Shown here in pieces: positions 7,945 to 63,863 of a stretch of 64,000 bases of DNA. Location: positions 252,274 through 316,273 of the forward strand of contig JBAXXQ010000001.1 of NCBI GenBank assembly GCA_037127795.1, in the 5' to 3' direction. How positions within the stretch are numbered: position 1 is the first letter of the stretch; each line of letters starts with the position of its first letter. The notes under the pieces were generated by a model. It saw nothing but the letters and a program-made list of their open reading frames with translations, had not been told where the DNA came from and made no database searches. The stretch comes from a bacterium (GTDB taxonomy: Bacteria; Patescibacteriota; Minisyncoccia; Phycocordibacterales; UBA9973). The position numbers and the translations under genes were made by a program.

Positions 7945-7983
7945 CATAGAGTATACTGTATGTATCTCTATGCTTTTATTTTT
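7945..7983 (+). terminator. Hairpin terminator after hpf (overlaps the start codon of the next gene)
   Basis: aagcatagag...ctctatgctt hairpin followed by ttattttttg. Confidence 0.35.
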
Positions 7984-10900: not shown

Positions 10901-11044
10901 TGTATCAATAGTACTTGTATCAATGAAGATCAACTCAAACAAATGTTGAACAATACTACTCCGGTACAGCAATCAGTAGTAGATATTTCTATACAAGACC
11001 CTGCTATACCAGCAGTAATACCTGATACGAATTCTACCCAATAA
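7970..11044 (+). CDS. Giant secreted tail-fibre-like protein with C-terminal intramolecular chaperone / auto-processing domain (peptidase S74-like), paralog 1
   Basis: Signal peptide; Gly/Thr/Ser/Asn-rich body; C-terminal SCSSDINLKKNIV...LTPVQYNWK...HTGFIAQQVEQIFPDLV matches the endosialidase/tail-fibre chaperone motif (S-D-x-x-L-K-x-N-I ... GhIAQ-V); conserved CxxxxC-DQLKxML tail. Confidence 0.7.
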   Translation: MLLFFVRHKKTFFALTFVFLFGATVSFANPPVGGYDPGTILDPDCAPGSTDCTVNINNKISAGNGVEFVGQAIQVKLDGASLYKSNTGLKISDGYIGQSSITTVGTIIAGHWHGDVIDIAHGGTGLGATPQNGEFLIGNGTGYDLVNLAGADGVVITNSGSTVTIGLGTSNIPVITSVSGTDYIPIYQTTSPDVRKKITYNDLFSGVLGSLKYQGTWDPGTNTPAIADSDCNSSAKGNFYIVGASGNRHIGSEFSWESGDWLICKGTVWEEVEKTNNIDSVFGRMGSVVAMNGDYTASQITNVPFGSISSITVQNAINELATEKEPVIVPGLANEYWRGDKTWQTLDTSNVSEHPARLYFTNARAVTALTGQNLSIFNNNVGYNSGTGAVGQIPFWNGTNTITGDTGLVWDNTDKQLVIGGGSNFAFSTPSAVTFNIGGNVDTFFQANIQNQSNGANASTDWIATSDNGNELANYVDMGINSSGYNTPSFNITGVNDAYLYSAGNDFAIGNASIGKSLKFFTGGTTTANQRLVIDGTGDVVFTPTSSSATTSSSSLSFNSTYALTAANTAVTTGTVSALVTAQGEVVGSSITNGVFNASGHKLSSAVTWPTVLTPTYFDEYDIAAGAGYSPVIQSISIDTAVTGGSNQLIGDLRYSTDGGNTFTSAGSVKNFPLTSGSYLTFSYTGLSISVPSNTTIIFRVFIYASGVVTSSRSVYMRNMQINGQIGTSTGSVKGVSIAGNYTASASNHVLSALYINGTYNAAGYTGVKNYDLYQANAAASNYFAGVVGIGNLNPTYMLDVGSSSVSGIVGRFTNATGSCTISPTTTSLSCSSDINLKKNIVVLADNTLFTLSTITTAPTATTLDKIMSLTPVQYNWKTEQDTDPKHTGFIAQQVEQIFPDLVLTDPETNLKSVNYMGFAPYLVQAVQEINVTIKNLSSLDTGNINSLGSLIKQFLADSKNNIEDLYAKNIHSSNQICINSTCINEDQLKQMLNNTTPVQQSVVDISIQDPAIPAVIPDTNSTQ

Positions 11045-11049
11045 AACCT

Positions 11050-11274
11050 TTTGTTTTGTAGTCTTTACATAGTATACTTATAGCGTATATGCGCCACTTT
11101 TTTATCACACACAAGAAAACATTCTTCGCAATGTTATTTGTGATACTTTTTAGTACTACTATCTCTTTTGCTGACCGTGCAAACCCCTACACTGCAGGAG
11201 AAACTCTTGATCCAGACTGTGCGCCAGGAAGTGGGGTGAATTGTACGGTACATATTGCTGGTGGAGGAGGAACT
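11050..11274 (+). repeat. Copy A of a ~225 bp identical cassette (promoter + 5' end of gene)
   Basis: Sequence from tttgttttgtagtctttacatag... to ...gctggtggaggaggaact is identical to 14127-14354 except for a 3 nt GGA indel. Confidence 0.85.
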
Positions 11275-14121: not shown

Positions 14122-14126
14122 AATTG

Positions 14127-14354
14127 TTTGTTTTGTAGTCTTTACATAGTATACTTATAGCGTATATGCGCCACTTTTTTATCACACACAAGAAAACATT
14201 CTTCGCAATGTTATTTGTGATACTTTTTAGTACTACTATCTCTTTTGCTGACCGTGCAAACCCCTACACTGCAGGAGAAACTCTTGATCCAGACTGTGCG
14301 CCAGGAAGTGGGGTGAATTGTACGGTACATATTGCTGGTGGAGGAGGAGGAACT
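14127..14354 (+). repeat. Copy B of the ~225 bp identical cassette
   Basis: Direct comparison with 11050-11274. Confidence 0.85.
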
Positions 14355-17300
14355 AATGGGTGGGATAGTATGTTGGCGCAAAATCAAGTACAGACGCAGG
14401 ATAGAACTATTGATGTTAATAATAAATATTTACGATTTAGTAATATAAATGAAGTTGATTTTTCTGGGGTCTCTGGTCAAAACACTATTGAAATTGTGGA
14501 AGGGCAGGTAAATATGGGAGATATTGGTGGGGTTGGAAATGGTGTTTATTTTTCAGTTGATAGTCCTAATAATAAAATTTATTCATTGGCTGGAGGAAAT
14601 CCAGCTGGATTGAATCTTGATTTTAATAATCAAATATATGAATTGGGTGATTATGGTCACAATAATGATGCTACAACATTATCAGTAGATAATACTCATG
14701 ATATTATTTCTACTTATAGTGGTTCAAATAATTATAAAAATTCAGGTATTTATTTAGATTATGGAAATGCTGATTTTTATTATGGTGATTATGGTCACAA
14801 TCAAAATGGTACAGCAATTTTACTTGATGATCTAGCTCAAACCCAAACCTTCAATGCTAATAATGGGTTTACGTTTAATACTGACAATGGAGGATTTATT
14901 GTATCAGGTAGCAACAGTTACCATTATCAAGATGGGTTATTAGGGGCAATAATATCAGGTAGAATAGCATTTATAGGGGATAATTCTGGCGACTTTAATA
15001 GTACTAGTTTATTGGTTAATGACAATACTGGACAACAATTTATTGATTTTAATGCGCAAAACGGTTTCCAATTCACAGGAGGTTCTATAAGTAGTGATGG
15101 TAATATCTTACTAACAAACGGGGGTACTATATCTGCAAATGCAAATGATTTACAACTAATAAATAATGGTAATTCAAACTATATAAATGTAGGCGCAGGT
15201 GGTAATATAGAGGCACATTCAACAACTGGTGGGACGATAGCATTACAAGATGATTTAAATGGTGCAAAAATATTAATTAACAATTATGCGGGTGATATTG
15301 AATTAACATCTACTTTAGGAGCACCAATAAAAATGTTTGGAGGTAGTGTTCAAACTGATGGTGATATAGAAGGTGGTGGCAAGATAACCACACCTAATTC
15401 AACATTATTTTCAGATGGTTCTGTAGGACTTCCTCATGCTGCTATTAATGTAGACGGGGGTGGTTATTTATCTAATGGTAATTTTAGTTGGGATGCAGGT
15501 GGAAATATAACTACTTATGGTGATTTAAGTTTAATGGGGGGTAATGCGGGGATATTTTCAAATGGACATATATTTTCGGGGGTAGATGGGTTTAATAATT
15601 TTGATGCAACGCAATCTGGTTCACTTACAATTGCTTCAATTAGTGATGGAACAGCAACATTATTTACTGGTGGCGATGGAGATTTTTACATAGCAGATAA
15701 AACAAGTGGTAACCAAACATTCTATGTAGATGTAGCTGGAATGCAAACAACCGATGCAGTAGCGGGGGCGGGAACACTAAGCCCTGCGTGGAAGCTTGGA
15801 AGTTATAATAGCACTTCTGAATCTGTCGCTGTGTCTATTGGGGGTACACTATACAATCTCTCTACGCATGGTGTCGCACTCGATAGTAACAATAGCTTTA
15901 TTGTCGGAGGGGCTGGATCTTTTGGTGCAAATATAAATTCTGTATATGTAGGATTTGCAGCTGGGACTGGTGCAAATGATGCAAACAATTCAAACTTCCT
16001 TGGTGCAAATGCAGGGCTCAATGCGCAATTTGCAAACCATTCAAATTTCTTTGGTGCAGATGCTGGTAATGGTGCAATCAATGCAAGTGTCTCAAACTTC
16101 ATTGGGTACCAGGCGGGGTATGGGGCTGTGAATGCTACGGGCTCAAACTTCTTGGGGCAAGATGCCGGTCATGGTGCAACATATGCAACCAATTCAAACT
16201 TCTTTGGATTCCAGGCTGGATATGGTGCGCTCGGTAGTAATAGCTCTCCATTTAATAGTAACTTCTTTGGGTATCAAGCAGGGTATGGTGATTACAATCT
16301 CACCGACTCAAACTTCTTTGGATACCAAGCAGGATATATTGCAAATACTGCTATAAGTTCAAACTTCTTTGGAAATAGCGCAGGGTATGGAGCAACTAAT
16401 GCTGCGTATGCAAACTTTATGGGGTTTTATGCTGGGTATGGAGCTGGTAATGCAAACGGCTCAAACTTCTTTGGACGCAATGCAGGAGATTCTGCAAGTA
16501 ATGCATCATATTCAAACTTTATTGGATTTGCAGCAGGTAAGTATGCAACAAATGCTCAAATTTCAAACTTTATTGGAATCGGCGCAGGTCTTGATGCAAC
16601 AAATGCAAGTGAGTCAAATTTCTTTGGAGATAATACTGGGCGTGGTGCAACCAATGCTTCAAATGCAATATTTATAGGTGCAAGTGCTGGGTATAATGAT
16701 GCTGTAAATAATGTTTCAACTGGAGGGTTTTCAATTCTTATAGGGCCACATACAAATACTGGTGGCTATTCAAACAGTATTGCAATAGGTGGCTCTGCTA
16801 CCAATACCGCAACAAATCAATTTATGATCGGCTCAACTTCATTCCCAATCAATACTACTGTCATCAAAGGTGCAAGTACACAATGTACTATCACCACAGG
16901 TACAGGTATTGCATGTTCGTCTGATGCAAGTCTCAAGAAAAATATTGTAGCCGTACAAGATGGTACGCTTGCAAAAGTACTTGCACTCCGCCCGGTAACA
17001 TACAACTGGAATGATGAACAAGATACTGATCCGACACATATAGGATTCATTGCGCAAGAAGTAGAAACAGTATTCCCACAAGTAGTATCTATAGACCCTG
17101 CAACACATCTCAGACTGCTCTCTACGACCTCACTTATTCCTTATACTATCAAAGCTATACAAGAGATGCATATTACTATTACGTCTGTAATTCCAGATAC
17201 TCTTGATAGTACTGCGTATGGCAAAATAAAAGAATTTTTGCGAGAAATTGCTACAGAAGGGAAGGCTGTAGTAGATATTGTACAAACACATACACTCTGT

Positions 17301-17528
17301 GTAGACGATGTGTGTGTCACCCGTGATCAGTTCAAAAACATGGTCCAGCAAGCAGGTCAGCAACAAAGTGCTCCGAGTGTTGTTGTGCCTGTAGCACCTA
17401 GTACAACACCAGTAACCACTCCAACACCAGTTTCATCAGACGCTACTGTAGTAGACCCAGTTGTTACCCCAACACCAAGTCCTGTGGTAGATACTACTCC
17501 TGCTCCTGCATCTTCTGAAAATCAGTAA
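14166..17528 (+). CDS. Giant secreted tail-fibre-like protein with long SNFxG-xAG-GA-NA repeat array and C-terminal S74-like chaperone domain, paralog 3
   Basis: Identical N-terminus to paralog 2; ~17 tandem 14-16 aa Gly/Ala/Asn repeats; CSSDASLKKNIVAV...YNWN...HIGFIAQEVETVFPQV; Pro/Thr/Val-rich tail. Confidence 0.7.
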   Translation: MRHFFITHKKTFFAMLFVILFSTTISFADRANPYTAGETLDPDCAPGSGVNCTVHIAGGGGGTNGWDSMLAQNQVQTQDRTIDVNNKYLRFSNINEVDFSGVSGQNTIEIVEGQVNMGDIGGVGNGVYFSVDSPNNKIYSLAGGNPAGLNLDFNNQIYELGDYGHNNDATTLSVDNTHDIISTYSGSNNYKNSGIYLDYGNADFYYGDYGHNQNGTAILLDDLAQTQTFNANNGFTFNTDNGGFIVSGSNSYHYQDGLLGAIISGRIAFIGDNSGDFNSTSLLVNDNTGQQFIDFNAQNGFQFTGGSISSDGNILLTNGGTISANANDLQLINNGNSNYINVGAGGNIEAHSTTGGTIALQDDLNGAKILINNYAGDIELTSTLGAPIKMFGGSVQTDGDIEGGGKITTPNSTLFSDGSVGLPHAAINVDGGGYLSNGNFSWDAGGNITTYGDLSLMGGNAGIFSNGHIFSGVDGFNNFDATQSGSLTIASISDGTATLFTGGDGDFYIADKTSGNQTFYVDVAGMQTTDAVAGAGTLSPAWKLGSYNSTSESVAVSIGGTLYNLSTHGVALDSNNSFIVGGAGSFGANINSVYVGFAAGTGANDANNSNFLGANAGLNAQFANHSNFFGADAGNGAINASVSNFIGYQAGYGAVNATGSNFLGQDAGHGATYATNSNFFGFQAGYGALGSNSSPFNSNFFGYQAGYGDYNLTDSNFFGYQAGYIANTAISSNFFGNSAGYGATNAAYANFMGFYAGYGAGNANGSNFFGRNAGDSASNASYSNFIGFAAGKYATNAQISNFIGIGAGLDATNASESNFFGDNTGRGATNASNAIFIGASAGYNDAVNNVSTGGFSILIGPHTNTGGYSNSIAIGGSATNTATNQFMIGSTSFPINTTVIKGASTQCTITTGTGIACSSDASLKKNIVAVQDGTLAKVLALRPVTYNWNDEQDTDPTHIGFIAQEVETVFPQVVSIDPATHLRLLSTTSLIPYTIKAIQEMHITITSVIPDTLDSTAYGKIKEFLREIATEGKAVVDIVQTHTLCVDDVCVTRDQFKNMVQQAGQQQSAPSVVVPVAPSTTPVTTPTPVSSDATVVDPVVTPTPSPVVDTTPAPASSENQ

Positions 17529-27164: not shown

Positions 27165-28466
27165 ATGACAAGTTTTAAAAACATTTTACTTGGACTCTTT
27201 ATTGTACTTTTTGTCGGCGCTATTTTGGTATTTTCTGGGGTGATAAATATTGGTGGGACGACACAACAAAAAGTGCAAACAAATTTATCCCTTTGGGGAC
27301 CGTTTCCTTCAATTGCTATGCAGGGTATTATTACTGATTTTAATAATATTGATACGTATACACAAATTAGTTATACCCAAGTCTTACCAAATGATTTGCA
27401 TAGGCAGCTCGTCGAAGCTATCGCTTCAGGGAAAGGACCTGATATGGTCATTTTTTCAAACGAAAATTTCTTACAAGATATTGATAAGTTATATGTAACA
27501 CCTTTTGCTACATATCCTGAGAGAACATTTCGTGATACGTATATAGATGGAGCTAGTACGTTTTTAAATAATGATGGTGTTGTTTTGTATCCGCTCGTTG
27601 TTGATCCTTTGGTTGTGTATTACAACAAAGATCTTCTTGCTGCTGCAAAATATATCTATCCTCCTCGTACATGGTCTGGGCTCAATCAAAGCGTGCCACT
27701 ATTTTTGAAAAAAGATAAAACAGGTATTACGCAAAGTGCTATTGCATTGGGTGAATCTCCTAATATGGAGCATTTCAAGAAAATATTTTCTACTCTGTTA
27801 TTACAATCAGGGGTTCCTGTTGTTTCTTATAATACTGATGCAAAGAGGTATTTAGTAAAACTTAATACTGAGCGATCTGACCCAAATAAAGCGACACCAC
27901 AAGAACAAGCATTTTTGTACTATCAATCATTTGCTGATCCGACAAGTCAGCTCTACAGTTGGAATAAAAAACTTCCAGAAGCACAAGACGCGTTTCTTTC
28001 TGGAAAGAGTGCCTTTTATCTTGCTCCCGCTAGTGAATTGTTTGAAATTCAAACAAAAAATCCAAATCTTAATTTTGATACGACGGCAATGTTTCAACCA
28101 GACAATGCGGTAAGACCTATTACATACGGTACTATTTATGGTGTAGGTATTCTCAAAAATAGTTCAAATCTTGCTGTTGCGTACAATGTACTCGGTTCTC
28201 TTTTGGGAAAAGATATTGTCGATACTATATCAAAACAGGTATCACTTCCTCCGGCACGTCGTGACCTTTTACAGGTACAACCAGCAAATCCATATGCTGC
28301 AGTATTTTTTAATCAAGCACTACAAACATTTACATGGCCTGATCCTGATAAAAATGGTACTGATACTGCCTTTCGTGATATGATAAGACAAGCAGCTTCA
28401 GGGGAAAGAGATATTAATCAAGCATTATATGAAACACAAAATCAAATTCAATCTTATATTCAGTAG
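27165..28466 (+). CDS. Extracellular solute-binding protein (ABC family 1, MalE-like), membrane-anchored, orphan
   Basis: N-terminal TM anchor; PLVVDPLVVYYNKDLL...PPRTWSGL matches the SBP family-1 signature; no adjacent permease or ATPase. Confidence 0.5.
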   Translation: MTSFKNILLGLFIVLFVGAILVFSGVINIGGTTQQKVQTNLSLWGPFPSIAMQGIITDFNNIDTYTQISYTQVLPNDLHRQLVEAIASGKGPDMVIFSNENFLQDIDKLYVTPFATYPERTFRDTYIDGASTFLNNDGVVLYPLVVDPLVVYYNKDLLAAAKYIYPPRTWSGLNQSVPLFLKKDKTGITQSAIALGESPNMEHFKKIFSTLLLQSGVPVVSYNTDAKRYLVKLNTERSDPNKATPQEQAFLYYQSFADPTSQLYSWNKKLPEAQDAFLSGKSAFYLAPASELFEIQTKNPNLNFDTTAMFQPDNAVRPITYGTIYGVGILKNSSNLAVAYNVLGSLLGKDIVDTISKQVSLPPARRDLLQVQPANPYAAVFFNQALQTFTWPDPDKNGTDTAFRDMIRQAASGERDINQALYETQNQIQSYIQ

Positions 28467-28824
28467 TTTATTTTTATTCATAACAGCTATACCAGCTTTT
28501 GCAAAAGGTCCAGCAGGAAGTGTTATAGGTATTCCTTGTGATGGAGTAAATTGTAACATTGAGGATATTTTTACCTTGATTAATAATCTCATAAAATTTG
28601 CTATTACAAAATTATTTTTCCCAATTTTTATTGTAGCTATTTTGTACATTGGATGGAGTTATCTTACCGCTGGTGGAGATACCAAGAAGGTTGCTAATGT
28701 AAAACAAATGGCTTGGCATATGTTTTTAGGGGTAATCCTTGTTCTTGCATCATGGCTTATTGTTAAAACAGTACTCGATGTACTAGGGGCAACAGATGCG
28801 GGGATGTTTTTGACAGGTAATTAA
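28429..28824 (+). CDS. VirB2/TrbC-like pilin-type protein 1 (signal peptide + two-helix hairpin)
   Basis: Sec signal (AIPAFA/KG), then two long hydrophobic helices separated by a TAGGDTKK loop; overlaps the SBP gene by 38 nt. Confidence 0.5.
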   Translation: MKHKIKFNLIFSSLFLFITAIPAFAKGPAGSVIGIPCDGVNCNIEDIFTLINNLIKFAITKLFFPIFIVAILYIGWSYLTAGGDTKKVANVKQMAWHMFLGVILVLASWLIVKTVLDVLGATDAGMFLTGN

Positions 28825-28840
28825 TGTATACTTATATTAT

Positions 28841-29323
28841 ATGCAATATAAAAATCTTAAAAAAATATTCGCTGTAGGTATATTTTTGGGAATAATGTTT
28901 TTTTCAAATTTGTTAGTATTTGCTCAAGGTAACCCTGGTGCAAATAGTACTGGGACACCAACAAATAATCCTGGTGCAAATGCTACAGCAAATCAAACAA
29001 CTCCATCTGCTACGGCAAATAATACTGTTATTCCGCCAGGAGATACAAAGATAAGTTATAGTATTAATAACCCGCTTGGAGTTACTAGTATTGATGAGGT
29101 TATACAAAAAATAATGGCTGTTATAGTTAAACTCGCAGTTCCTGTAATTATCTGCCTCTTTTTATATACAGGATTTATGTTTATTACAGCACAGGGAGAT
29201 ACCACAAAATTAAAAACAGCAAAAACTATGCTTTGGCAAGTAATTGTAGGAACTATTATTATCCTTGGTGCATGGGCTATAGCAGCTGCTATTGTTACAA
29301 CAGTAAGCTTAATAACAGGATAA
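28841..29323 (+). CDS. VirB2/TrbC-like pilin-type protein 2 with Asn/Thr/Pro-rich spacer
   Basis: Signal (LLVFA/QG); low-complexity NPGANSTGTPTNNPGANATANQTT linker; helix-AQGDTTK-helix C-terminal hairpin. Confidence 0.5.
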   Translation: MQYKNLKKIFAVGIFLGIMFFSNLLVFAQGNPGANSTGTPTNNPGANATANQTTPSATANNTVIPPGDTKISYSINNPLGVTSIDEVIQKIMAVIVKLAVPVIICLFLYTGFMFITAQGDTTKLKTAKTMLWQVIVGTIIILGAWAIAAAIVTTVSLITG

Positions 29324-29324
29324 T

Positions 29325-30476
29325 ATGAAAAGATTTTTATTCTCACTCATACTAATAGTAAGTATATCAATCCCGGCATTTGCCTTTGCTGGAGAGATAA
29401 CAGCACAAAGTCAGTGTAAAAATTTATCTAGCATTTCAACAAGTGCTCAATATACTATTTGCTGTACGAGTACTTTTAAGGCCGCTATTTGTAGTAGTCT
29501 TACCACAAGTCAACAATGCACTTTAGGAGTACTTCCTGCGGATCAATGTCAGAATCAGTGTGATTCTATAAAATCAAAAAATGACTATGATGTATGTTGT
29601 AATCTTTCTGATCATCCTATTTGTAAGTCACTTTCAGTACCAGAACAATGTGCATACGGAGCGCCTATTAATCCATCGCTCTGTGTGTCTACGCAACAGC
29701 AAGTGACCCAGAATCAACCTCAAACATACACTCCTGGTGCGACTTATACATCAGGGCAATGTGATGCATTTTCTAGTATTGATTCTTTGGATAAGTACAA
29801 TAGTTGTTGTGTTGATTTAAAAACAAATACTCCTCATTCTCCTCAACCTACAAGTTGTCTTACAATGACAAAAAATCAACAATGTGCTCTGGGGGTACTT
29901 CCTGCTGATCAGTGCCAGAATCAATGTAGTTCTATTACCTCTAGGGATGATTATACGACTTGTTGTGCAGGTGCTGTTGTTGCCAACTCATGTGTTGCAT
30001 TATCACAAGCAGATATATGTTTGTTCAAAACTTTTAATTCTACTATTGAGGCAACAAATGCGGGCTGTCCGGATGCAAATATTGCCGGGTTTGTTTCTCC
30101 TGGTTCTGGGGTTGGGGGAAGTCTTTTAGGGGGTGATCCTTTGGGAACATATAGTAAAAATGTTGTCGTAGAAACAACCTGTTCAAAAGTAAATCTTTCA
30201 AAAGTTGACTTGAAAAGTTTTTGGAGTTTCTTTTTGTGGGTTCGATGTTTTATAGGAAGTCTATTTCCATTATTGATGACAATTGCGTTCCTTGTCTTTA
30301 TGTGGAATATTGTCAACTACATAATTAAACCTAATGCATTAAAGAATAATGAGCGCCGTACATATATAATCGCGGGATTAATAGGGTTATTTGTTATTGT
30401 TGGTATGTGGGGCTTGGTTGCATTCACAACATCAACCCTTGGAATAGGAAGTGTTATACCACAGCTGCCATTGTAG
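29325..30476 (+). CDS. Cys-rich secreted modular protein with C-terminal VirB2-like two-helix membrane hairpin
   Basis: Signal (AFAFA/GE); two ~110 aa tandem Cys-rich modules (QQC.LGVLPADQCQNQC.SI.S..DY..CC repeated); C-terminal FFLWVRCFIG...AFTTSTLGIG hairpin. Confidence 0.5.
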   Translation: MKRFLFSLILIVSISIPAFAFAGEITAQSQCKNLSSISTSAQYTICCTSTFKAAICSSLTTSQQCTLGVLPADQCQNQCDSIKSKNDYDVCCNLSDHPICKSLSVPEQCAYGAPINPSLCVSTQQQVTQNQPQTYTPGATYTSGQCDAFSSIDSLDKYNSCCVDLKTNTPHSPQPTSCLTMTKNQQCALGVLPADQCQNQCSSITSRDDYTTCCAGAVVANSCVALSQADICLFKTFNSTIEATNAGCPDANIAGFVSPGSGVGGSLLGGDPLGTYSKNVVVETTCSKVNLSKVDLKSFWSFFLWVRCFIGSLFPLLMTIAFLVFMWNIVNYIIKPNALKNNERRTYIIAGLIGLFVIVGMWGLVAFTTSTLGIGSVIPQLPL

Positions 30477-30545
30477 ATTTGATATATAGGTGTGGTATAC
30501 TATAAGGGTACTAAATAATTAAAAGATAGTAATTAATTGTAATTT

Positions 30546-30926
30546 ATGAAAAAATTTTTGATAGCATTAAGTGCAGTACTTGTTCCTGCAAGTTTGTACG
30601 CACAATCACCAAGTCATTTGAATAATCTTATAGATGAAATTTTTAACCTTGCAAATAAGGCTGTTGCGTTTTTGATGATATTGGCAACATTGTATTTTAT
30701 CTGGGTTATTATAAAACTTATTACACAAACAGATTCTGCAAAAAGAAAAGAAAACAAAGAGCAAGTAAAATGGGCAGTTATTGGTCTTGCTATTATGGTC
30801 TGTGTATGGGGTCTTATCCGTTTTGCTGCTGATACTCTTGGTATTAGTACAACTAATGGAAACCAAAATAATATTGCAATCCCTTGTCCACCAGGTACAA
30901 ACCCTGTTGGAGGTGGTTGTCGTTAA
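30546..30926 (+). CDS. VirB2/TrbC-like pilin-type protein 4
   Basis: Signal (SLYA/QS); two hydrophobic helices separated by a TQTDSAKRKENKEQ loop; Gly/Cys C-tail. Confidence 0.5.
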   Translation: MKKFLIALSAVLVPASLYAQSPSHLNNLIDEIFNLANKAVAFLMILATLYFIWVIIKLITQTDSAKRKENKEQVKWAVIGLAIMVCVWGLIRFAADTLGISTTNGNQNNIAIPCPPGTNPVGGGCR

Positions 30927-30940
30927 GCTACTACAATACT

Positions 30941-31315
30941 ATGTTGTCTGAATTTATTGCATTTGCACAGGTATCACACGATCAGACATTAGAAGGTGTT
31001 TTATCTCGTATTAATTATTATATTATCAATCCCGCAATTATGTTGCTTTTTACGATAGCGACAGTGGTATTTATTTGGGGGATTATAAAATATATTAGAA
31101 ATGCTGCAGATCCAAAAAAGCGTAAAGAAGGACAAGATCATATGTTGTGGGGGATTATAGGATTTACTATTATGGTAGGAGTATACGGGATTATTACTAT
31201 AATTACTCAATTTTTTGGGTTCTCAAATGTAACTGTAACTCCAACAAAAATAAAAGTAACTCCTCAAAATATCCCATCGGTAAAAATTAAATCTTTTAAT
31301 TTACCTACTAAATAA
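30941..31315 (+). CDS. VirB2/TrbC-like pilin-type protein 5
   Basis: Start chosen at ATG 30941 (track ORF 30884 overlaps the previous gene); two helices around RNAADPKKRKEGQD. Confidence 0.45.
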   Translation: MLSEFIAFAQVSHDQTLEGVLSRINYYIINPAIMLLFTIATVVFIWGIIKYIRNAADPKKRKEGQDHMLWGIIGFTIMVGVYGIITIITQFFGFSNVTVTPTKIKVTPQNIPSVKIKSFNLPTK

Positions 31316-58124: not shown

Positions 58125-59369
58125 ATGAAACGTCAAGACTTAGAAAAAGCAAATTTATCTGAAGCACCTGGCGTGTATTTTTTCAAAGATGGGTTTGGGA
58201 AGATACTCTACATAGGTAAAGCTACTTCACTTCGCGATCGCGTGCGAAGCTATTTTTCGCCGGATGTGATCAAGACTCGTGGTCCACATATTGTCGATAT
58301 GGTTTTTAAGGCTGAAAGGGTAGATTTTCAGGAAACAGGAAGTGTGCTCGAGGCAGTTATCGTAGAAGCAAATTTAATAAAAAAACATAAGCCGTACTAC
58401 AACACCAAAGAAAAAGATGATAAGAGTTTCAATTGTGTTGCTATTACCAAAGAAGAATTTCCTCGAGTAATTATCGTCCGTCAAAAAGATATTGATACTC
58501 GCGCCAAGACTATAACTTCAGTAAAACAAAATATCACACAGGCGCCATATGATGTATTTTTTGGCCCGTATCCGAGCTCGACAACGCTCAAAGAAGTGCT
58601 TGGTATTATCCGCAAGATTTTTCCATTCAGAGATCGTGCAAGTACACAAAAAGATCGCGCAATATTTTATCGTCAGATTGGTCTTGCGCCCGATATAGAA
58701 ACAAGTGTCGGTATTGCAGCGTATAAAAAAAGTATTAGCCATATCAAGCTCCTCCTGGGTGGTAATATGAAAAAACTTATAGCAACACTTACCAAAGAAA
58801 TGCTTGCTGCTGCAAAAACAGAACATTTTGAAGAAGCAGAAATGCTCAAGCGTAAGATATTTTCATTACAACATATTCAGGATGTATCACTCATCAAACG
58901 TGAAGGAAGTTTTGAATCAAGCGGATTTCGTATAGAAGCCTATGATGTCGCGCATATTTCAGGGAGTAGTATGGTAGGGGTGATGGTAGTAGTAGATGGC
59001 GAGCAAAGTAAAAAATCTGAGTATAAAAAATTCAATATTAAGGGATTTATTAAGTCCAACGATACTGGCGCGCTCAAAGAAATACTCACGCGCAGATTTG
59101 CTCATCCAGAATGGACTATGCCGCAAGTAGTACTAGTAGATGGTGGTATAGCGCAGCAAAATATTGCACGAGAAGTACTCAAAGACCTCAATCTCAATAT
59201 ACCAATCATTGGTGTAGTCAAAGATGAACGCCATAGACCAAAAGCGATAGTAGGAGATAAGTCATTAATTGAAAAACATAAATATGCATTATTGCTCGCA
59301 AATAGCGAAGCACACAGATTTGCAATTACTTTCCACAGACAAAAACGCGCAAAAGCTCTCTTGAAATAA
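58125..59369 (+). CDS. uvrC: Excinuclease ABC subunit C (short 414 aa form)
   Basis: GIY-YIG module (PGVYFFKDGFGKILYIGKATSLRDRVRSYF), UvrB-interaction/UVR segment, partial C-terminal nuclease region; ~200 aa shorter than canonical UvrC. Confidence 0.8.
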   Translation: MKRQDLEKANLSEAPGVYFFKDGFGKILYIGKATSLRDRVRSYFSPDVIKTRGPHIVDMVFKAERVDFQETGSVLEAVIVEANLIKKHKPYYNTKEKDDKSFNCVAITKEEFPRVIIVRQKDIDTRAKTITSVKQNITQAPYDVFFGPYPSSTTLKEVLGIIRKIFPFRDRASTQKDRAIFYRQIGLAPDIETSVGIAAYKKSISHIKLLLGGNMKKLIATLTKEMLAAAKTEHFEEAEMLKRKIFSLQHIQDVSLIKREGSFESSGFRIEAYDVAHISGSSMVGVMVVVDGEQSKKSEYKKFNIKGFIKSNDTGALKEILTRRFAHPEWTMPQVVLVDGGIAQQNIAREVLKDLNLNIPIIGVVKDERHRPKAIVGDKSLIEKHKYALLLANSEAHRFAITFHRQKRAKALLK

Positions 59370-59394: not shown

Positions 59395-61281
59395 ATGAGT
59401 GCACCATACGACCCAGAGCATATTACGTATTTTGCGGAAACAGATTTTCGTAATCAAAAAACGCGCTTCGGTATAAAAAGTCGTGATCGTACTCGTCATA
59501 TGTATGTGATCGGTAAGTCTGGTGTAGGTAAATCTACATTGCTCGAAAACATGGCAATACAAGATATTCAAGATGGCCAAGGGCTTGCTATTTTGGACCC
59601 GCACGGAAGTTTTGCAGAAAAAGCTCTTGAATATATCCCTGAGCACCGTATCAAGGATGTGATTTATTTTTCTCCATTTGATACAGAATATCCAATATCA
59701 TTCAATGTGCTCGAAGATGTGGGTGCAGACAAGCGCCACCTTGTAGTATCTGGCCTTATGAGTACATTCAAAAAGATTTGGGTGGATGCATGGAGTGCTC
59801 GTATGGAATATATTTTGACAAATACACTTCTTGCGCTTTTGGAATATCCAGGAGCGACATTGCTCGCAGTGAACCGTATGCTTTCTGATAAAGATTTTAG
59901 AAAAGCGGTAGTTGATAATATTACCGATGCTGCAGTGAAAGCATTTTGGACAGAAGAGTTTGCAAAATATACAGAGCGTATGGCTGCTGAAGCTGTCCCT
60001 GCAATACAAAACAAGGTGGGACAATTGACCGCAAATCCACTTATCCGCAATATCATCGGACAACCAAAATCAAGTTTTGATATGCGTGCATTGATGGATG
60101 ATCAAAAGATTCTTATTGTGAACCTTTCAAAAGGACGTATCGGAGAACAAAATACCAACTTGCTCGGTAGTATGATCATCACCAAGATGTATCTTGCGGC
60201 TATGAGTCGTGCAGAAGTATCTGCAGAGCGCTCAAAATCTCTCGCACCATTTTATTTTTATGTTGACGAATTCCAATCATTTGCCAATGAGACATTTGCT
60301 GATATTCTCGCAGAGGCTCGTAAATATAAATTGGCACTTATTATTGCACACCAATATGTCGCACAGATGGATGAAAAAGTTCGTGATGCGGTCTTTGGAA
60401 ACGTAGGTACTACGGTGAGTTTCCGTGTGGGGCCGCTCGATGCTGAGCTTTTGGAAAAAGTGTTTGCGCCGCAATTTATGCAAAATGATCTTATCAATCT
60501 TGGTATGGCGCAGATTTACCTTACACTTATGATCAACGATATTGGATCACAAGCATTCTCTGCGCGAACATTACCACCACTTGCTCGCCCTCCTATTTCA
60601 TATAGAAATGATGTTATAGAAGATTCACGTAAACGCAATACACTCGATAGACCAGCAGTTGAAGCAAATATTGCCGCATGGTTTGCACAAGATGTACGAC
60701 CAAAAAGAGAATATCCTCCTAGTGGAGAGCAGAGTAATAATGAACCAAGTCAAGATAAACCTCGCATAACATTTGCAGAAAATAAGCCTCCATTTGTAAA
60801 AAAACCTTTTAATCCAGATGCACCAAGAGCTCCTTTTGTAAAAAAAGAATGGCCAAAGAAAGAGTTTACTCCTCGACCACCACAAAGTCCTGCTCCAGAA
60901 AAAACTCCTGTTGCTCATAATCCATTTAAAAAAGCTTTTGCGCAAGCTCCTGAAATAGAAACAGTCTTTGAGAAAAAAGATGTAGCAAAACCTTTTACTG
61001 ATGAAAAGCCACTTATTCAAGCTATTGCTCCAGTAAAACACGCAGAACGAGGTCCGACTGAGCAAAATAAAAACCTGCTTCGAGAAGCGCTCCTAAAAGC
61101 AGTTCCAGAAAAACCTAATACACCACCTCCAAGTCCTTACATTGCTCAAGATCCTCAAAAACCAATACAACAAAATAATACGCCGCCACCTATTCCAAAA
61201 TCGCCTCCTTTGCAAAGTCCAGTACCTGATTCCTCATTACAAGAAATTAGTCACGAAGATTTAAAAAAAGTTTTGGAATAA
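59395..61281 (+). CDS. VirD4/TraG/TraD-like P-loop ATPase (type IV coupling-protein-like) lacking TM helices, with a ~230 aa proline-rich C-terminal tail
   Basis: Walker A VIGKSGVGKST; Walker B region FYFYVDEFQSF; LALIIAHQYVAQMDE motif; low-complexity P/K/E tail (PPPSPY, PPPIPKSPPLQSP). Confidence 0.5.
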   Translation: MSAPYDPEHITYFAETDFRNQKTRFGIKSRDRTRHMYVIGKSGVGKSTLLENMAIQDIQDGQGLAILDPHGSFAEKALEYIPEHRIKDVIYFSPFDTEYPISFNVLEDVGADKRHLVVSGLMSTFKKIWVDAWSARMEYILTNTLLALLEYPGATLLAVNRMLSDKDFRKAVVDNITDAAVKAFWTEEFAKYTERMAAEAVPAIQNKVGQLTANPLIRNIIGQPKSSFDMRALMDDQKILIVNLSKGRIGEQNTNLLGSMIITKMYLAAMSRAEVSAERSKSLAPFYFYVDEFQSFANETFADILAEARKYKLALIIAHQYVAQMDEKVRDAVFGNVGTTVSFRVGPLDAELLEKVFAPQFMQNDLINLGMAQIYLTLMINDIGSQAFSARTLPPLARPPISYRNDVIEDSRKRNTLDRPAVEANIAAWFAQDVRPKREYPPSGEQSNNEPSQDKPRITFAENKPPFVKKPFNPDAPRAPFVKKEWPKKEFTPRPPQSPAPEKTPVAHNPFKKAFAQAPEIETVFEKKDVAKPFTDEKPLIQAIAPVKHAERGPTEQNKNLLREALLKAVPEKPNTPPPSPYIAQDPQKPIQQNNTPPPIPKSPPLQSPVPDSSLQEISHEDLKKVLE

Positions 61282-61284
61282 TAT

Positions 61285-62601
61285 ATGAAAAAAATCACAT
61301 GCATCATTTTTATTTTTCTTATCAGTATGCCCGCTCTGGCTCATGCAGATGTAATCATAAATGAAGTTGCATGGATGGGGACTAATAAAAGCTCTAGTGA
61401 TGAATGGATTGAGCTTGCAAATACAGATAGTACTGCTGTCTCACTTGCTGGATGGAAATTGCATACCGCAGACAACAGTGTAAATATAACCCTTTCTGGA
61501 TCTATATCTGGAAATGGGTTTTATTTATTGGAGCGTACTGATGATACGACAGTACCCAATATAACAGCTGATAAAATCTATACTGGCGCGCTTTCTGATA
61601 GTGGTGAAAAGCTTATATTGGAAGACAATACCGGTAGTGTAGTACAGAGTCTTGATTTTACTGCAAAATGGCCAGCAGGGAACACGACCACAAATCAAAC
61701 CATGCAGTGGAATGGTAGTACTTGGGTCACAGGAGATGCAACACCAAAAGCAAGTAATGTACAAACGACTGCAGATACAAATATCTCTACAGTAAACACC
61801 ACAACAAATACAAGTAATGGTTCACAGCAATACGTTCCACCAAAAGTAGTACCGCATATAGAATTTTCTTTTCCATCACCTCTGTACAGTGGTATGCAAT
61901 ATGAATTTGGTGCACAAGCAGTACTTGAGTATATGACCGAGCCGTATGGATATTTTGTCTGGAATATGGGGGATGGATCACATTTTACAAAAACAGATAA
62001 TACTGACCCACTCTCGTATACCTATGAATATCCTGGTACGTATACAGTATCTTTTGCGTATTACAGATCTGCATATGAGAAAAAGTCAATACTTTCTGGT
62101 ACAAAAAAGATTGAGGTTTTGAAACCTAGTATAGATATGAGTATTATAGATAATGGCGCAGCGCTTAGTATTCAAAATAGTACAGACAAGGTGGTGGATT
62201 TGTCTGGATGGCATTTGGAAACAAGTTCTGGTAATACCGTTTTTCCTGATATGACGTATATTGCGCCAAAAGCAGATGTTATTTTTTCTGCAAAAAATTT
62301 ACAACTTAGTTCAGTGCAAGGCGCAAAAATATATACACCATTTTCTGGATTTAGTACACAAGTAATACAACCCAATACTAAGGCAAATATTGTTATAAAA
62401 AATATTACAACAAAAAATAAAAACACCACATCTCGAAGTGTTCTCGGTACTGTAGCTCAACCTATACAAAATGTATCGACAGAGCCTATTGCTGCGCCAC
62501 AAACAAAAAACCACACCAAAAGTATTATTCTCGGTGTGGTTATTGCAACAGTTATCGGCCTGTTATTACTCCTTGAGCGTTTTATGACCCAGAAGGAGTA
62601 A
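61285..62601 (+). CDS. Lamin-tail-domain (LTD) secreted protein with C-terminal membrane anchor
   Basis: Signal peptide; VIINEVAWMG...DEWIELAN...LAGWKL (LTD signature); second LTD-like segment VVDLSGWHLE; C-terminal TM (ILGVVIATVIGLLLLL). Confidence 0.6.
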   Translation: MKKITCIIFIFLISMPALAHADVIINEVAWMGTNKSSSDEWIELANTDSTAVSLAGWKLHTADNSVNITLSGSISGNGFYLLERTDDTTVPNITADKIYTGALSDSGEKLILEDNTGSVVQSLDFTAKWPAGNTTTNQTMQWNGSTWVTGDATPKASNVQTTADTNISTVNTTTNTSNGSQQYVPPKVVPHIEFSFPSPLYSGMQYEFGAQAVLEYMTEPYGYFVWNMGDGSHFTKTDNTDPLSYTYEYPGTYTVSFAYYRSAYEKKSILSGTKKIEVLKPSIDMSIIDNGAALSIQNSTDKVVDLSGWHLETSSGNTVFPDMTYIAPKADVIFSAKNLQLSSVQGAKIYTPFSGFSTQVIQPNTKANIVIKNITTKNKNTTSRSVLGTVAQPIQNVSTEPIAAPQTKNHTKSIILGVVIATVIGLLLLLERFMTQKE

Positions 62602-63346
62602 CTGGTTTTGTAGGAGTTGTTTGTGTAGCTGCTGGTGCAGTATCCACTGGAGTACTCTGTGTATCTATTTTAATACTATCAATTTCTTTATTGAGAAGTT
62701 GTACTTCTTGGTCTGAAACTTTTTGGATAGCACCATCGATAGTTTTTAATGCAGCTGTTTGAGCGGTAGTATCTGTCGGTGTTGTAGAGGTGTCTGGAGT
62801 ACTCAATACTTCAGCCTTTTTTGCTTGAAGTGTTGCTTCTATATCGGTTGTTGTTTTGAGTGCGGTATTTGGATCGTTTTGTCCTAGAGTGGTAAGCTCA
62901 GCATTCAATGCAGTAACGTGATCATCGAGTGCTTTTTCTACTGTTGCTTGTTTTGCTTCGGTAAGAGTTTTGGTTTGTGCGAGGATTTGAATTTCGTTCA
63001 AACGTGTTTCGATACGAGCTTTTTGCCAAGCAATTTTTGCAGTAGGAGTTTTCATAAATGCACCTTTTACTTCTTCATTTACATTCACCTTGAATGCATA
63101 GAGTGGATCTCCAGGAAGCGCACTATTTGCGACAACTGAGATGCTGCCACATACAAAGACTACAAACATTGATGTTGAAAGGACAATACGGAGACCGTGT
63201 TGCGCACTTTTTTGTATCCATGAAATACGAGGCATTACTGGAGTGATACTCATTTGGTATGCCATACGAGCACGCAAAGAAGCCTTCTCATCAGGAGTGA
63301 GTTTTATTTCTTTGAATGATTGTAATTTTTGTAATTTATTCTCCAT
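62582..63346 (-). CDS. Putative membrane-anchored anti-sigma factor, by position
   Basis: Overlaps the upstream ECF sigma gene by 11 nt; single TM helix; Thr/Pro-rich extracytoplasmic tail. Confidence 0.4.
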   Translation of the reverse strand: MENKLQKLQSFKEIKLTPDEKASLRARMAYQMSITPVMPRISWIQKSAQHGLRIVLSTSMFVVFVCGSISVVANSALPGDPLYAFKVNVNEEVKGAFMKTPTAKIAWQKARIETRLNEIQILAQTKTLTEAKQATVEKALDDHVTALNAELTTLGQNDPNTALKTTTDIEATLQAKKAEVLSTPDTSTTPTDTTAQTAALKTIDGAIQKVSDQEVQLLNKEIDSIKIDTQSTPVDTAPAATQTTPTKPVTPSGS

Positions 63347-63863
63347 GGTATTTGTCGTATGACTTTCTTAGTTTTTCGATAATACGATGTATTTGTACAG
63401 CGAGCGCATTTGGTGTTTTATCAAAAAGCTCTGCTATATCATCGAGTGATCGTTCTTCTGCATAACGCAGAAAGATAATTTGTTTACTTTTTTCATCAAG
63501 TTCTTCGAGAAGTTTTTGCACTGAAGCAATGTCGTCTTGTTTGAAGATTGCATCGTTTGTAGTATCGACTTCTGGTTCGAACCCTTCTGTGACGAGATCA
63601 TCCAGTGAGTACGTCTTTGATCGTTTGTAGTAGTCTACAACAGCATTGCGTGCTGTTCTGTACAAAAAGGCTTGTGGATGGTCTATTTTTTGACCGCCAG
63701 CAAGGTATTGCCATACACGAGTAAAAACGTCTTGGGTGATATCGGTTGCAAGTGCTCGGTTTTTAACCCGAAATAATACAAAACGGAAGATTGCATCTTG
63801 ATATGTTTCAAAAAGATCAAAAAAATTATCTTCTACTGATTGTGACGACTGATCTGGCTTCAT
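63336..63863 (-). CDS. ECF-type RNA polymerase sigma factor (sigma-70 regions 2 and 4)
   Basis: Region 2 (DITQDVFTRVWQY), region 4 HTH (LRYAEERSLDDIAELFDKTPNALAVQIHR). Confidence 0.7.
   Translation of the reverse strand: MKPDQSSQSVEDNFFDLFETYQDAIFRFVLFRVKNRALATDITQDVFTRVWQYLAGGQKIDHPQAFLYRTARNAVVDYYKRSKTYSLDDLVTEGFEPEVDTTNDAIFKQDDIASVQKLLEELDEKSKQIIFLRYAEERSLDDIAELFDKTPNALAVQIHRIIEKLRKSYDKYHGE

Follow-up and report, generated by a model that had tools for sequence, protein, structure and literature searches.

The analyzed window, a stretch of 64,000 nucleotides, carries on its forward strand two genes separated by a spacer of only 3 nt (TAA-TAT-ATG): a short-form VirD4/TrwB-like ATPase gene of 628 aa (59395..61281, +), supported by its open reading frame, Pfam matches and homologues, and a gene for an LTD surface protein of 438 aa (61285..62601, +; Pfam LTD 2.2e-19, in two stretches). 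No terminator-like site was found on the + strand between them in a promoter/terminator scan, which gave no other strong signal. The ATPase gene comes after uvrA-nth-uvrC, and its GC content is unremarkable with respect to the remainder of the window. The product of the second gene had been described, in a first sequence-only reading of this DNA, as a secreted, membrane-anchored protein with two lamin-tail domains, and this layout was recovered: a signal peptide (aa 1-21), an LTD (aa 19-125), a PKD-like region (about aa 190-257; PKD_4 5e-5, 23.7 bits, below the 27-bit cut-off), a second LTD (about aa 280-365), and a C-terminal TM anchor (aa 413-430) followed by an 8 aa cytoplasmic end. Its gene overlaps by 20 nt, at the 3' end, a convergent gene for a DUF5667 membrane protein (62582..63346, -; Pfam DUF5667 6e-6, at the cut-off), whose start is overlapped by an ECF-type sigma factor gene (63336..63863, -; Sigma70_r2 4e-11, Sigma70_r4_2 3.5e-10). 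The same reading had an ECF sigma/anti-sigma pair converging on the LTD gene; the convergence and the sigma factor stand, while the DUF5667 protein is anti-sigma-like by position only.

The motor core of the ATPase (aa 1-432; 59395..60690, +) consists of a RecA-type nucleotide-binding domain (NBD) with an inserted all-alpha domain. The P-loop, D-E Walker B and AHQ...Q motifs reported at first sight were all located: Walker A GKSGVGKST at aa 40-48 (59512..59538, +), Walker B YFYVDEFQSF at aa 287-296 (60253..60282, +) and AHQYVAQ at aa 318-324 (60346..60366, +). In a 98-sequence family alignment, the P-loop residues G40, K41, S42, G43, G45, K46, S47 and T48, the Walker B stretch from Y287 to F296, and A318, H319, Q320, Y321, A323 and Q324 were invariant, as was W129-L141 within the all-alpha insertion. 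This insertion (aa 111-235; 59725..60099, +) comprises eight helices according to DSSP of the AF2 model and sits there between strands 89-92 and 239-243; it is the counterpart of the T4CP all-alpha domain. Pfam matches were obtained for TrwB_AAD_bind (PF10412; 5e-12, 45.8 bits vs. a cut-off of 20.5), with an alignment unbroken over aa 28-345 and thus spanning the insertion, for T4SS-DNA_transf (PF02534; 3e-10, 40.1 bits vs. 20.1), and for TraG-D_C (2e-5) and DUF87 (8e-6), both above their own cut-offs, the DUF87 match being secondary to those of T4CPs. Sequence searches of the PDB, whether started from the protein itself or from a profile of its family, returned the P-loop region of TrwB only (E ~0.003-0.004), a match so weak that structure comparison was relied on instead. 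By fold and motifs the product is an FtsK/HerA-superfamily motor, nearest to TrwB/VirD4, with an all-alpha domain inserted.

Among the features that characterize T4CPs, an FtsK/HerA-superfamily NBD that bears both Walker motifs (A and B) plus a conserved Gln, and an all-alpha domain within it, are both present. An N-terminal TM domain anchoring the hexamer is absent, the P-loop beginning at aa 40, and association with relaxase or Mpf genes (VirB4, VirB6) was found neither within ~8-10 kb in loci L001-L082 nor in the 64 kb window, distant pilin ORFs apart. As initially read, there are no N-terminal TM helices: no TM helix was detected along the protein (peak Kyte-Doolittle 19-residue mean 1.27, and 0.48 at most in the first 120 aa), and 197 of 201 family members likewise lack one.

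The remainder of the protein is a Pro/Lys/Glu/Ala-rich tail (aa 433-628; 60691..61278, +), predicted to be disordered (block-mean pLDDT ~36-70 in the AF2 model). Counted from aa 411 (218 aa), it contains 18.8% P, 11.5% K, 9.2% A and 8.7% E with two PPxP motifs, bearing out the low-complexity, PPxP-containing tail of the sequence-only reading, and it is mildly basic (net charge +7). In the family, tails range from 24 to 401 aa (median 230) and are hypervariable in sequence (mean top-residue frequency 0.40). Within these variable surroundings lie island 1, HNPFKKAF (aa 508-515; 60916..60939, +), whose columns are at least 40-70% conserved, and island 2, PFxDEKPL...PVKHAERGPTEQNKNLLREALxKA (aa 533-569; 60991..61101, +), apparent in both the alignment and the AF2 model, with a predicted helix at 556-568. 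The C-terminal peptide EISHEDLKKVLE (aa 617-628; 61243..61278, +) is also conserved and includes a predicted helix at 620-627; its motif was found in 95 of 120 close relatives vs. 1 of 2,400 shuffled tails. An apparent negative association between the type of C-terminal motif and the presence of an LTD partner (Fisher p ~0.005) was discarded as phylogenetically confounded, because it arises from lineage-specific motif variants such as the "...ERSPF" tips.

The family occurs in two architectures, a short form (motor and disordered tail) and a long form in which one TM helix and a DUF8128 domain of ~350 aa (PF26449), both lacking in the short form, precede the motor. Long forms were found in Saccharimonadia, Microgenomates, Berkelbacteria and others, and the same build is shared by phrog_5156 proteins from Bacillus phages (phage G gp156, CP-51 gp91). 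The motor core is common to the short form and the long forms of CPR genomes, at 44-55% identity; against the phage proteins identity was 18-28% (tblastn) with a Foldseek E of 1e-23, and the ATPase of the window matched only positions 397-782 of the phrog_5156 profile. The surroundings of the phage CP-51 member are nearly all hypothetical proteins. The idea of a split gene, with DUF8128 encoded separately nearby, was rejected locally, as tblastn gave no DUF8128 match anywhere in the window or across loci L001-L082. Long forms also have variable C-terminal tails; the motif E-[IV]-S/P-x-x-x-L-K-K-V-L occurred in none of 30 long-form proteins, and its exclusiveness to short forms is consistent with a tether that replaces the anchor.

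The T4CPs TrwB (R388), VirD4, Cagbeta and DotL share ~15% identity with the ATPase and, unlike them, it has no N-terminal TM domain and no nearby relaxase or Mpf genes, and is a very slowly evolving core chromosomal gene. The best NCBIfam match corresponded to the CD1115-family VirD4-like proteins of Firmicutes ICEs (NF045973, 7e-11). Among the NCBIfam T4CP equivalogs (CD1115 family, TraD, SXT TraD), however, the best score was 41.6 bits, far below the 250-bit cut-off, so the ATPase is not a member of that family, which is moreover ICE-borne. The 442-position NF045973 profile starts only ~20 positions ahead of the P-loop region, which suggests, from the profile, that the CD1115 family may be a precedent for a T4CP-like ATPase devoid of an N-terminal TM domain. 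The N-terminal domain of VirB4, whose C-terminal domain was also compared, is absent here as well. A match to CedD, a HerA/VirB4-like archaeal protein (PMC11868833), was confined to the P-loop in NCBIfam and was set aside as not relevant.

At least 8,000 close homologues were found, Paceibacteria-type and 59-94% identical; since the best of them reached E = 0 at 94% identity, the gene and its features are not a product of chance. Synteny was analyzed in the best 80 of 594 confirmed relatives, on contigs taken from one genome per species and with 68-95% core identity. Sequence change is slower in the motor core than in the products of adjacent genes: identity was 79%, vs. 59-63% for UvrC and 33-38% for the LTD protein in the same loci. 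No second T4CP paralogue was seen in the window or flanks. The ATPase gene belongs to the chromosomal core and is passed on vertically; it is neither a mobile-element nor a conjugation gene.

The LTD gene was the +1 neighbour, at a distance between -47 and +27 nt, in 36 of the 74 species loci that had a usable flank among the 80 kept (best 80 of 594), a coupling confirmed with independent gene calls, and 32 of 37 orthologous partners had the same LTD-PKD architecture. Roughly one lineage in two thus shows tight coupling of the ATPase gene to the gene for a surface-anchored LTD-PKD protein; the adjacency is conserved to that extent, the other half having no LTD partner. The conserved, chromosomal pair sits among peptidoglycan and glycan genes, not among T4SS or relaxase genes. 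Upstream of the short form, genes for a Mur ligase, for RsmI and for a small protein with two TM helices recur, and DUF4015 occupies one of the positions -1 to -3 in most loci, 38 of the same 74 (up to 55 of 80, best 80 of 594, when BLAST clusters 3 and 10 are taken together). GT-rich runs follow downstream in 57 of 80 loci (best 80 of 594); a set of 149 downstream operon genes included 70 GT4, 14 GtrA, 12 epimerases/dehydratases and 8 GT2, with no ABC or Wzx exporter among the top 25 downstream families. The clade of the window retains the LTD partner only, without the GT operon, and has UDG, RecG and PIF1 nearby. The sigma/DUF5667 pair adjoined the ATPase-LTD pair in 15 of 80 loci (best 80 of 594), all but two of them in that clade.

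VirB2-like pilins elsewhere in the window had also been pointed out, and four ORFs at 28429-31315 do match T4SS_pilin (PF18895), three of them scoring over the Pfam cut-off and the fourth under it. They lie ~28 kb from the ATPase-LTD pair, and in the window neither VirB4 nor VirB6 accompanies them, which leaves their proposed link to the pair without backing; the further claim of a joint DNA uptake or transfer apparatus found no support either, as VirB4, VirB6 and relaxases were absent within ~8-10 kb in the best 80 of 594 species loci and in L081-L082.

These properties resemble those of the orphan VirD4-like T4CP homologues of Patescibacteria, likewise VirD4-type HMM matches, chromosomal, away from virB4 and without relaxase, as described by Quinonero-Coronel et al. 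2025 (PMC12102498), and the ATPase very probably belongs to that set. That study reports 5,713 homologues, 148 of them near virB4, with relaxases rare, and suggests that these T4CPs were exapted. Of 3,035 Patescibacteria genomes, 80% contain VirB4 and 96% a T4CP homologue, while no coupling protein is recognisable within the T4SS cluster of Southlakia itself (PMC12102498, PMC10633639); in Southlakia the T4CP homologue is dispensable and the T4SS essential (PMC12102498). The available text gives counts and distance to virB4 only, and describes neither the short and long architectures and the anchor-less state nor the tail motifs and the LTD and envelope-operon synteny (PMC12102498). New here are the two architectures, the tail islands, the LTD synteny and the envelope-gene context.

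Our preferred reading, held tentatively at a probability of roughly 0.35, is that of a short-form orphan VirD4-like motor, tethered by its tail, that feeds substrate to a separately encoded T4SS, with the LTD-PKD protein at the surface. By analogy with TrwB, the motor core would assemble into an ATP-driven ring, and the tail motifs would act as tethers docking the soluble motor to a partner in the cytoplasmic membrane, taking on the role of the TM and DUF8128 module of the long form. Once docked, it would grip a cytoplasmic polymer through the very conserved all-alpha domain, an unfolded protein being a more likely substrate than relaxase-bound DNA, and pass it to a separately encoded conduit. 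A chromosomal pilus-type T4SS, with pilin genes elsewhere in the same genome, is proposed as the most plausible conduit because of the pilin ORFs and of the prevalence of VirB4 and T4CP homologues cited above. The co-expressed LTD-PKD protein would be the part of this envelope process that is exposed at the cell surface.

The neighbouring genes could alternatively reflect a motor for envelope biogenesis, independent of any T4SS, that together with its operon partners energises the assembly, export or placement of surface glycoproteins or wall glycopolymers. We regard this as unlikely, although the LTD-PKD anchor, DUF4015 and the GT4/GT2/GtrA genes form a conserved co-directional context, with the Mur ligase, RsmI and 2-TM genes upstream, and it would fit the exaptation suggested in the literature (PMC12102498). 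The long form nevertheless has another context (DprA-TopA), the clade of the window keeps the LTD partner without the GT operon, and synteny in tightly packed CPR genomes can persist without a functional link. To our knowledge, there is no case of glycan export by an FtsK/HerA-type or T4CP-type ATPase.

In Firmicutes, ComFA has a motor role in DNA uptake, and TrwB-type T4CPs are DNA-dependent ATPases. A comparable role for the present ATPase, which would refine the uptake idea of the first reading, appears doubtful: a soluble ring would draw in, via another channel (e.g., ComEC), DNA captured at the surface by the LTD-PKD protein. The long form directly follows dprA-topA at each of the 3 loci studied (synteny Der-Pth-DprA-TopA-HARE-HTH protein), yet dprA-topA pairing is widespread in bacteria whether or not a long-form gene is present. 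No competence gene adjoined the short form in the best 80 of 594 species loci; dprA was found only with the long-form loci L083 and L085. The mildly basic tail would suit DNA handling, as would the dispensability of the Southlakia homologue (PMC12102498) and of comEC (PMC12857230). Nucleases and phosphoesterases, extracellular or in the membrane, are the main carriers of LTDs, and ExeM without its LTD is less active as a nuclease in vitro, but the LTD is dispensable for ExeM in vivo and the role of bacterial LTDs was explicitly left undecided (PMC6085458); half of the lineages have no LTD partner at all. An improbable extension would make the motor and its membrane-anchored LTD-PKD partner a minimal module of two parts, found in Paceibacteria alone, that handles polymers across the envelope: the LTD ectodomain would capture extracellular DNA or some other polymer from the host, and the tethered ring would power its import through, e.g., ComEC, in place of a ComFA-type motor. 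Literature on FtsK or ComFA in Parcubacteria/Patescibacteria offered nothing decisive.

About equally improbable is a chromosome-handling translocase, FtsK- or HerA-like, serving segregation at division or DNA repair. It would agree with the superfamily, with uvrA-nth-uvrC just upstream in the window and UDG, RecG and PIF1 in its clade, with the dcw cluster that adjoins one long-form locus, and with a Pro-rich linker that recalls FtsK. FtsK/SpoIIIE proteins combine an N-terminal TM domain, a PF01580 motor and a gamma winged-helix domain, whereas the ATPase has neither TM nor gamma domain and gave no FtsK_SpoIIIE Pfam match. HerA carries a HAS barrel and has a NurA partner; here only a two-strand hairpin (aa 10-28, AF2 model) precedes the P-loop, and no NurA was seen in the best 80 of 594 species loci. 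The assignment to HerA with NurA, raised earlier as the alternative, thus did not materialize, the T4CP Pfam matches being stronger than that to DUF87. Finally, a mobile-element remnant or anti-phage defence ATPase (MADS mad8, HerA-Sir2 and similar) is already close to refuted: the PADLOC matches to mad8 (1.9e-15) and HerA are weak and the similarity to phrog_5156 phage proteins is strong, but the short-form loci showed neither an integrase nor a relaxase nor any defence partner and have envelope and housekeeping genes as neighbours, synteny is stable with very high conservation over many species, and GC content is ordinary for the window.

Much of bacterial diversity is patescibacterial, and nearly all surveyed genomes of Patescibacteria carry VirD4-like genes (PMC12102498). 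Through its link with Bacillus phage proteins, the long form marks out a separate clade of coupling-type motors that had no name before. The anchor-less build, the tail and the operon context make two points accessible to testing: the binding partner of the tail peptides, and the nature of the substrate (DNA, protein or envelope polymer). If the two-part import module were true instead, an export-type conjugation motor would have been turned to uptake, serving scavenging by organisms unable to make nucleotides. The loss of the anchor, the disordered, motif-bearing tether and the LTD-PKD operon in an envelope neighbourhood provide testable handles on the role of these VirD4-like proteins.

The ATPase, the 628 aa product of an ORF at 59395-61281 (+), carries Walker A (GKSGVGKST, aa 40-48), Walker B (YFYVDEFQSF, aa 287-296) and AHQYVAQ (aa 318-324) motifs, whose residues were all invariant in a family alignment of 98 sequences. 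No segment came near transmembrane (TM) hydrophobicity (maximal Kyte-Doolittle 19-mer mean of 1.27, and 0.48 within the first 120 aa), and the sequence from about aa 411 had a high content of Pro (18.8%), Lys (11.5%), Ala (9.2%) and Glu (8.7%). On sequence grounds, it is a coupling-type motor with intact catalytic motifs and without a membrane anchor. Every factual detail of the sequence-only reading on ORF positions, motifs, absence of TM segments and Pro-rich tail was confirmed, and its assignment to the coupling-type ATPases withstood testing. The database contained at least 8,000 homologues. The best 120 of these shared 59-94% identity; where a source was named it was Paceibacteria, Nomurabacteria or Minisyncoccia, and the annotation was 'type IV secretion system DNA-binding domain-containing protein'. 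The ATPase is a vertically inherited core gene, its core (~79% identity) evolving more slowly than adjoining genes at the same loci (UvrC 59-63%, lamin-tail-domain protein 33-38%). The window is chromosomal, low in GC (~0.37) and densely packed, with housekeeping genes including gyrA, clpB, uvrABC, infB, pyruvate kinase and tRNA genes.

An exhaustive family search of 1.84 billion cluster representatives returned 21,886 matches at E <= 1e-3, of which 5,818 reached E <= 1e-30, and two architectures were found. In the short form, to which the window ATPase belongs, the motor opens the protein and the tail comes after it; the long form carries the same motor (44-55% identity) behind one TM helix and a conserved ~350 aa domain, PF26449 (DUF8128). 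Among the matches listed, nearly all of those above ~56% identity were short forms. Long forms with DUF8128 were seen in Saccharimonadia, Microgenomates, Berkelbacteria, WWE3 and Dojkabacteria (e.g. proteins P0194, P0205 and P0213 and loci L083-L085), and aligned end to end with phrog_5156, which includes Bacillus phage G gp156, CP-51 gp91, JL and Shanette (phage matches H1-H13 and L086), defining a distinct clade of coupling-type ATPases common to Patescibacteria and large Firmicute phages. By tblastn, neither the window nor the 82 loci L001-L082 encoded a DUF8128 domain. The long-form context differed from that of the short form but was just as stable, with Der, Pth, DprA, TopA and a Sigma70_r4/HARE-HTH protein (~350 aa) followed by the ATPase (about 4400-11900 in L083-L085), and no VirB4 was found near it in these loci. 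In all three contigs the long-form gene appeared as two consecutive ORFs, suggesting a frameshift or assembly error.

The short-form tail (24-401 aa, median 230) was hypervariable, with a mean top-residue frequency of 0.40 versus 0.89 in the core (aa 1-432), except for three conserved islands: HNPFKKAF (aa 508-515), PFxDEKPL...AERGPTEQNKNLLREALxKA (aa 533-569) and the C-terminal EISHEDLKKVLE (aa 617-628). Tail helices were predicted only on the latter two. The C-terminal motif was present in 95 of 120 close relatives, versus 1 of 2,400 shuffled tails, and in none of 30 long forms. Alternative tips were '...L-K/R-x-M/L-L-R/K-x4-ERSPF', at many LTD-linked loci, and 'KPG-E/Q-x-I-x-F', in some short and some long forms (examples in L029, L044, L060 and L080, and in P0141, P0143 and P0184); such variants suggest docking peptides specific to lineages. 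The ATPase tail is disordered and bears conserved short motifs.

Between the ATPase stop codon and the start of the lamin-tail-domain (LTD) gene (61285-62601, +) lie 3 nt (TAA-TAT-ATG). The 438 aa LTD protein begins with a signal peptide and is anchored by a C-terminal TM segment (aa 413-430); Pfam recognises two LTD stretches in it (2.2e-19) and, under the cut-off, a weak PKD match. The locus set comprised the best 80 of 594 confirmed relatives, with one genome scanned per species; among the 74 species loci having a complete ATPase gene and downstream flank, an LTD-PKD orthologue was the +1 gene in 36, and the pairing first noticed in the window survived testing. The partners formed one BLAST cluster, 32 of 37 having both signal peptide and C-terminal anchor, and started -47 to +27 nt from the ATPase stop codon in 36 of 37 cases. 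The ATPase is operon-coupled to a surface-anchored LTD-PKD protein. Genes for an ECF-type sigma factor (63336-63863, -) and a DUF5667 membrane protein (62582-63346, -) do converge on the LTD gene, as had been claimed, and the 3' ends of the LTD and DUF5667 genes overlap by 20 nt (62582-62601). This pair was restricted to 15 loci, essentially the clade of the window; at L081 and L082 the block of ATPase, LTD/PKD, DUF5667 and sigma genes was also found by independent gene calls. A strong terminator-like hairpin on the minus strand (62541-62509) lies within the LTD gene.

At loci elsewhere the +1 gene was usually a GT4 glycosyltransferase (22 of 71). The 149 co-directional genes sampled at +2 and beyond included GT4 (70), GtrA (14), sugar epimerases/dehydratases (12), methyltransferases (9) and GT2 (8), with no ABC or Wzx exporter among the top 25 families. 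Upstream, DUF4015 occupied positions -1 to -3 at most loci, a small 2-TM protein (~28 loci), RsmI (28) and Mur ligase (27) recurred, and the window's clade had YkuD and D-Ala-D-Ala carboxypeptidase families, among others. The 2-TM protein (~80-130 aa, motif FLGVPSxWK, no Pfam match), encoded shortly before DUF4015 and 1-3 genes ahead of the ATPase (at L019, L022, L023, L029 and L032, among others), is a candidate membrane partner. UvrC adjoined the ATPase in 3 loci only; that of the window (58125-59369, +) has only 414 aa, with GIY-YIG, UVR and RNase H-like domains and no match to a C-terminal helix-hairpin-helix. The short-form ATPase sits in an envelope-gene neighbourhood; the family census and window-protein searches found no VirB4, VirB6, relaxase, NurA or integrase in short-form loci. 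Elsewhere in the window, three surface-protein genes of 1,010-1,120 aa stand in tandem (7970-17528, +); the second and third products share an identical ~60 aa N-terminus, and the first ends in a Peptidase_S74 (endosialidase intramolecular chaperone) domain, like phage tail fibres.

The pilin ORFs of the sequence-only reading proved to be four T4SS_pilin (PF18895) genes (28429-31315, +), of which three pass the Pfam cut-off and one falls short of it, clustered with a gene for a Cys-rich, secreted and anchored 383 aa protein without Pfam match (29325-30476). The 64 kb window has no gene for VirB4 or VirB6. The proposal that ATPase, LTD protein and pilins together form a DNA uptake or transfer apparatus found no support in context or literature. 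Orphan VirD4-like genes of Patescibacteria are already known from excerpts of two studies, and the family of the ATPase is published as to its existence. One excerpt (Quinonero-Coronel et al. 2025, PMC12102498) gives 5,713 VirD4-type T4CP homologues, spread over 2,918 of 3,035 Patescibacteria genomes, with only 148 of the homologues near virB4, and only 109 relaxases in total; the other (Wang et al. 2023, PMC10633639) describes a Southlakia T4SS cluster in which neither a coupling protein nor a relaxase is recognisable. Neither excerpt covers the architecture, context or role of these orphan genes. What appears to be new here is the short architecture lacking an anchor, the tail as a motif-bearing tether, the conserved pairing with an LTD-PKD protein, the placement among envelope operons, and the finding that the short form is sister to the DUF8128 long forms and to phage proteins from Bacillus.

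Given the pilin genes in this genome, the Southlakia T4SS cluster without its own T4CP and the near-universality of both gene sets in the phylum, we tentatively propose, at a probability of roughly one in three, that the ATPase is a trans-acting coupling motor for a separately encoded chromosomal T4SS. The excerpt of PMC12102498 reports that Tn-seq found the Southlakia T4CP homologue dispensable but other T4SS genes essential, which argues against an obligatory T4SS role; exaptation of these T4CPs 'cannot be ruled out', according to its authors. The likeliest rival, at rather low probability, is a role in envelope biogenesis independent of the T4SS, which synteny favours. A DNA-uptake motor acting with ComEC and a DNA-binding LTD, a refined form of the original idea, is more doubtful still. 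Since comEC is dispensable too (PMC12857230), the dispensability of the Southlakia homologue is compatible with DNA uptake. ExeM without its LTD is less active in vitro, not in vivo (PMC6085458). The identifier K02242, which we take to be ComFC, is given as ComFA in PMC12361377. FtsK/HerA-like chromosome handling seems slightly less probable again, and a remnant of a mobile element or defence system is highly improbable.

As a trans-acting coupling motor, the ATPase core would assemble as an ATP-driven ring, on the TrwB model, and its extremely conserved all-alpha domain may bind a conserved substrate. The tail motifs would tether this soluble ring to a membrane partner, a job held in the long form by the TM and DUF8128 module, and the LTD-PKD protein would be a co-expressed surface component.
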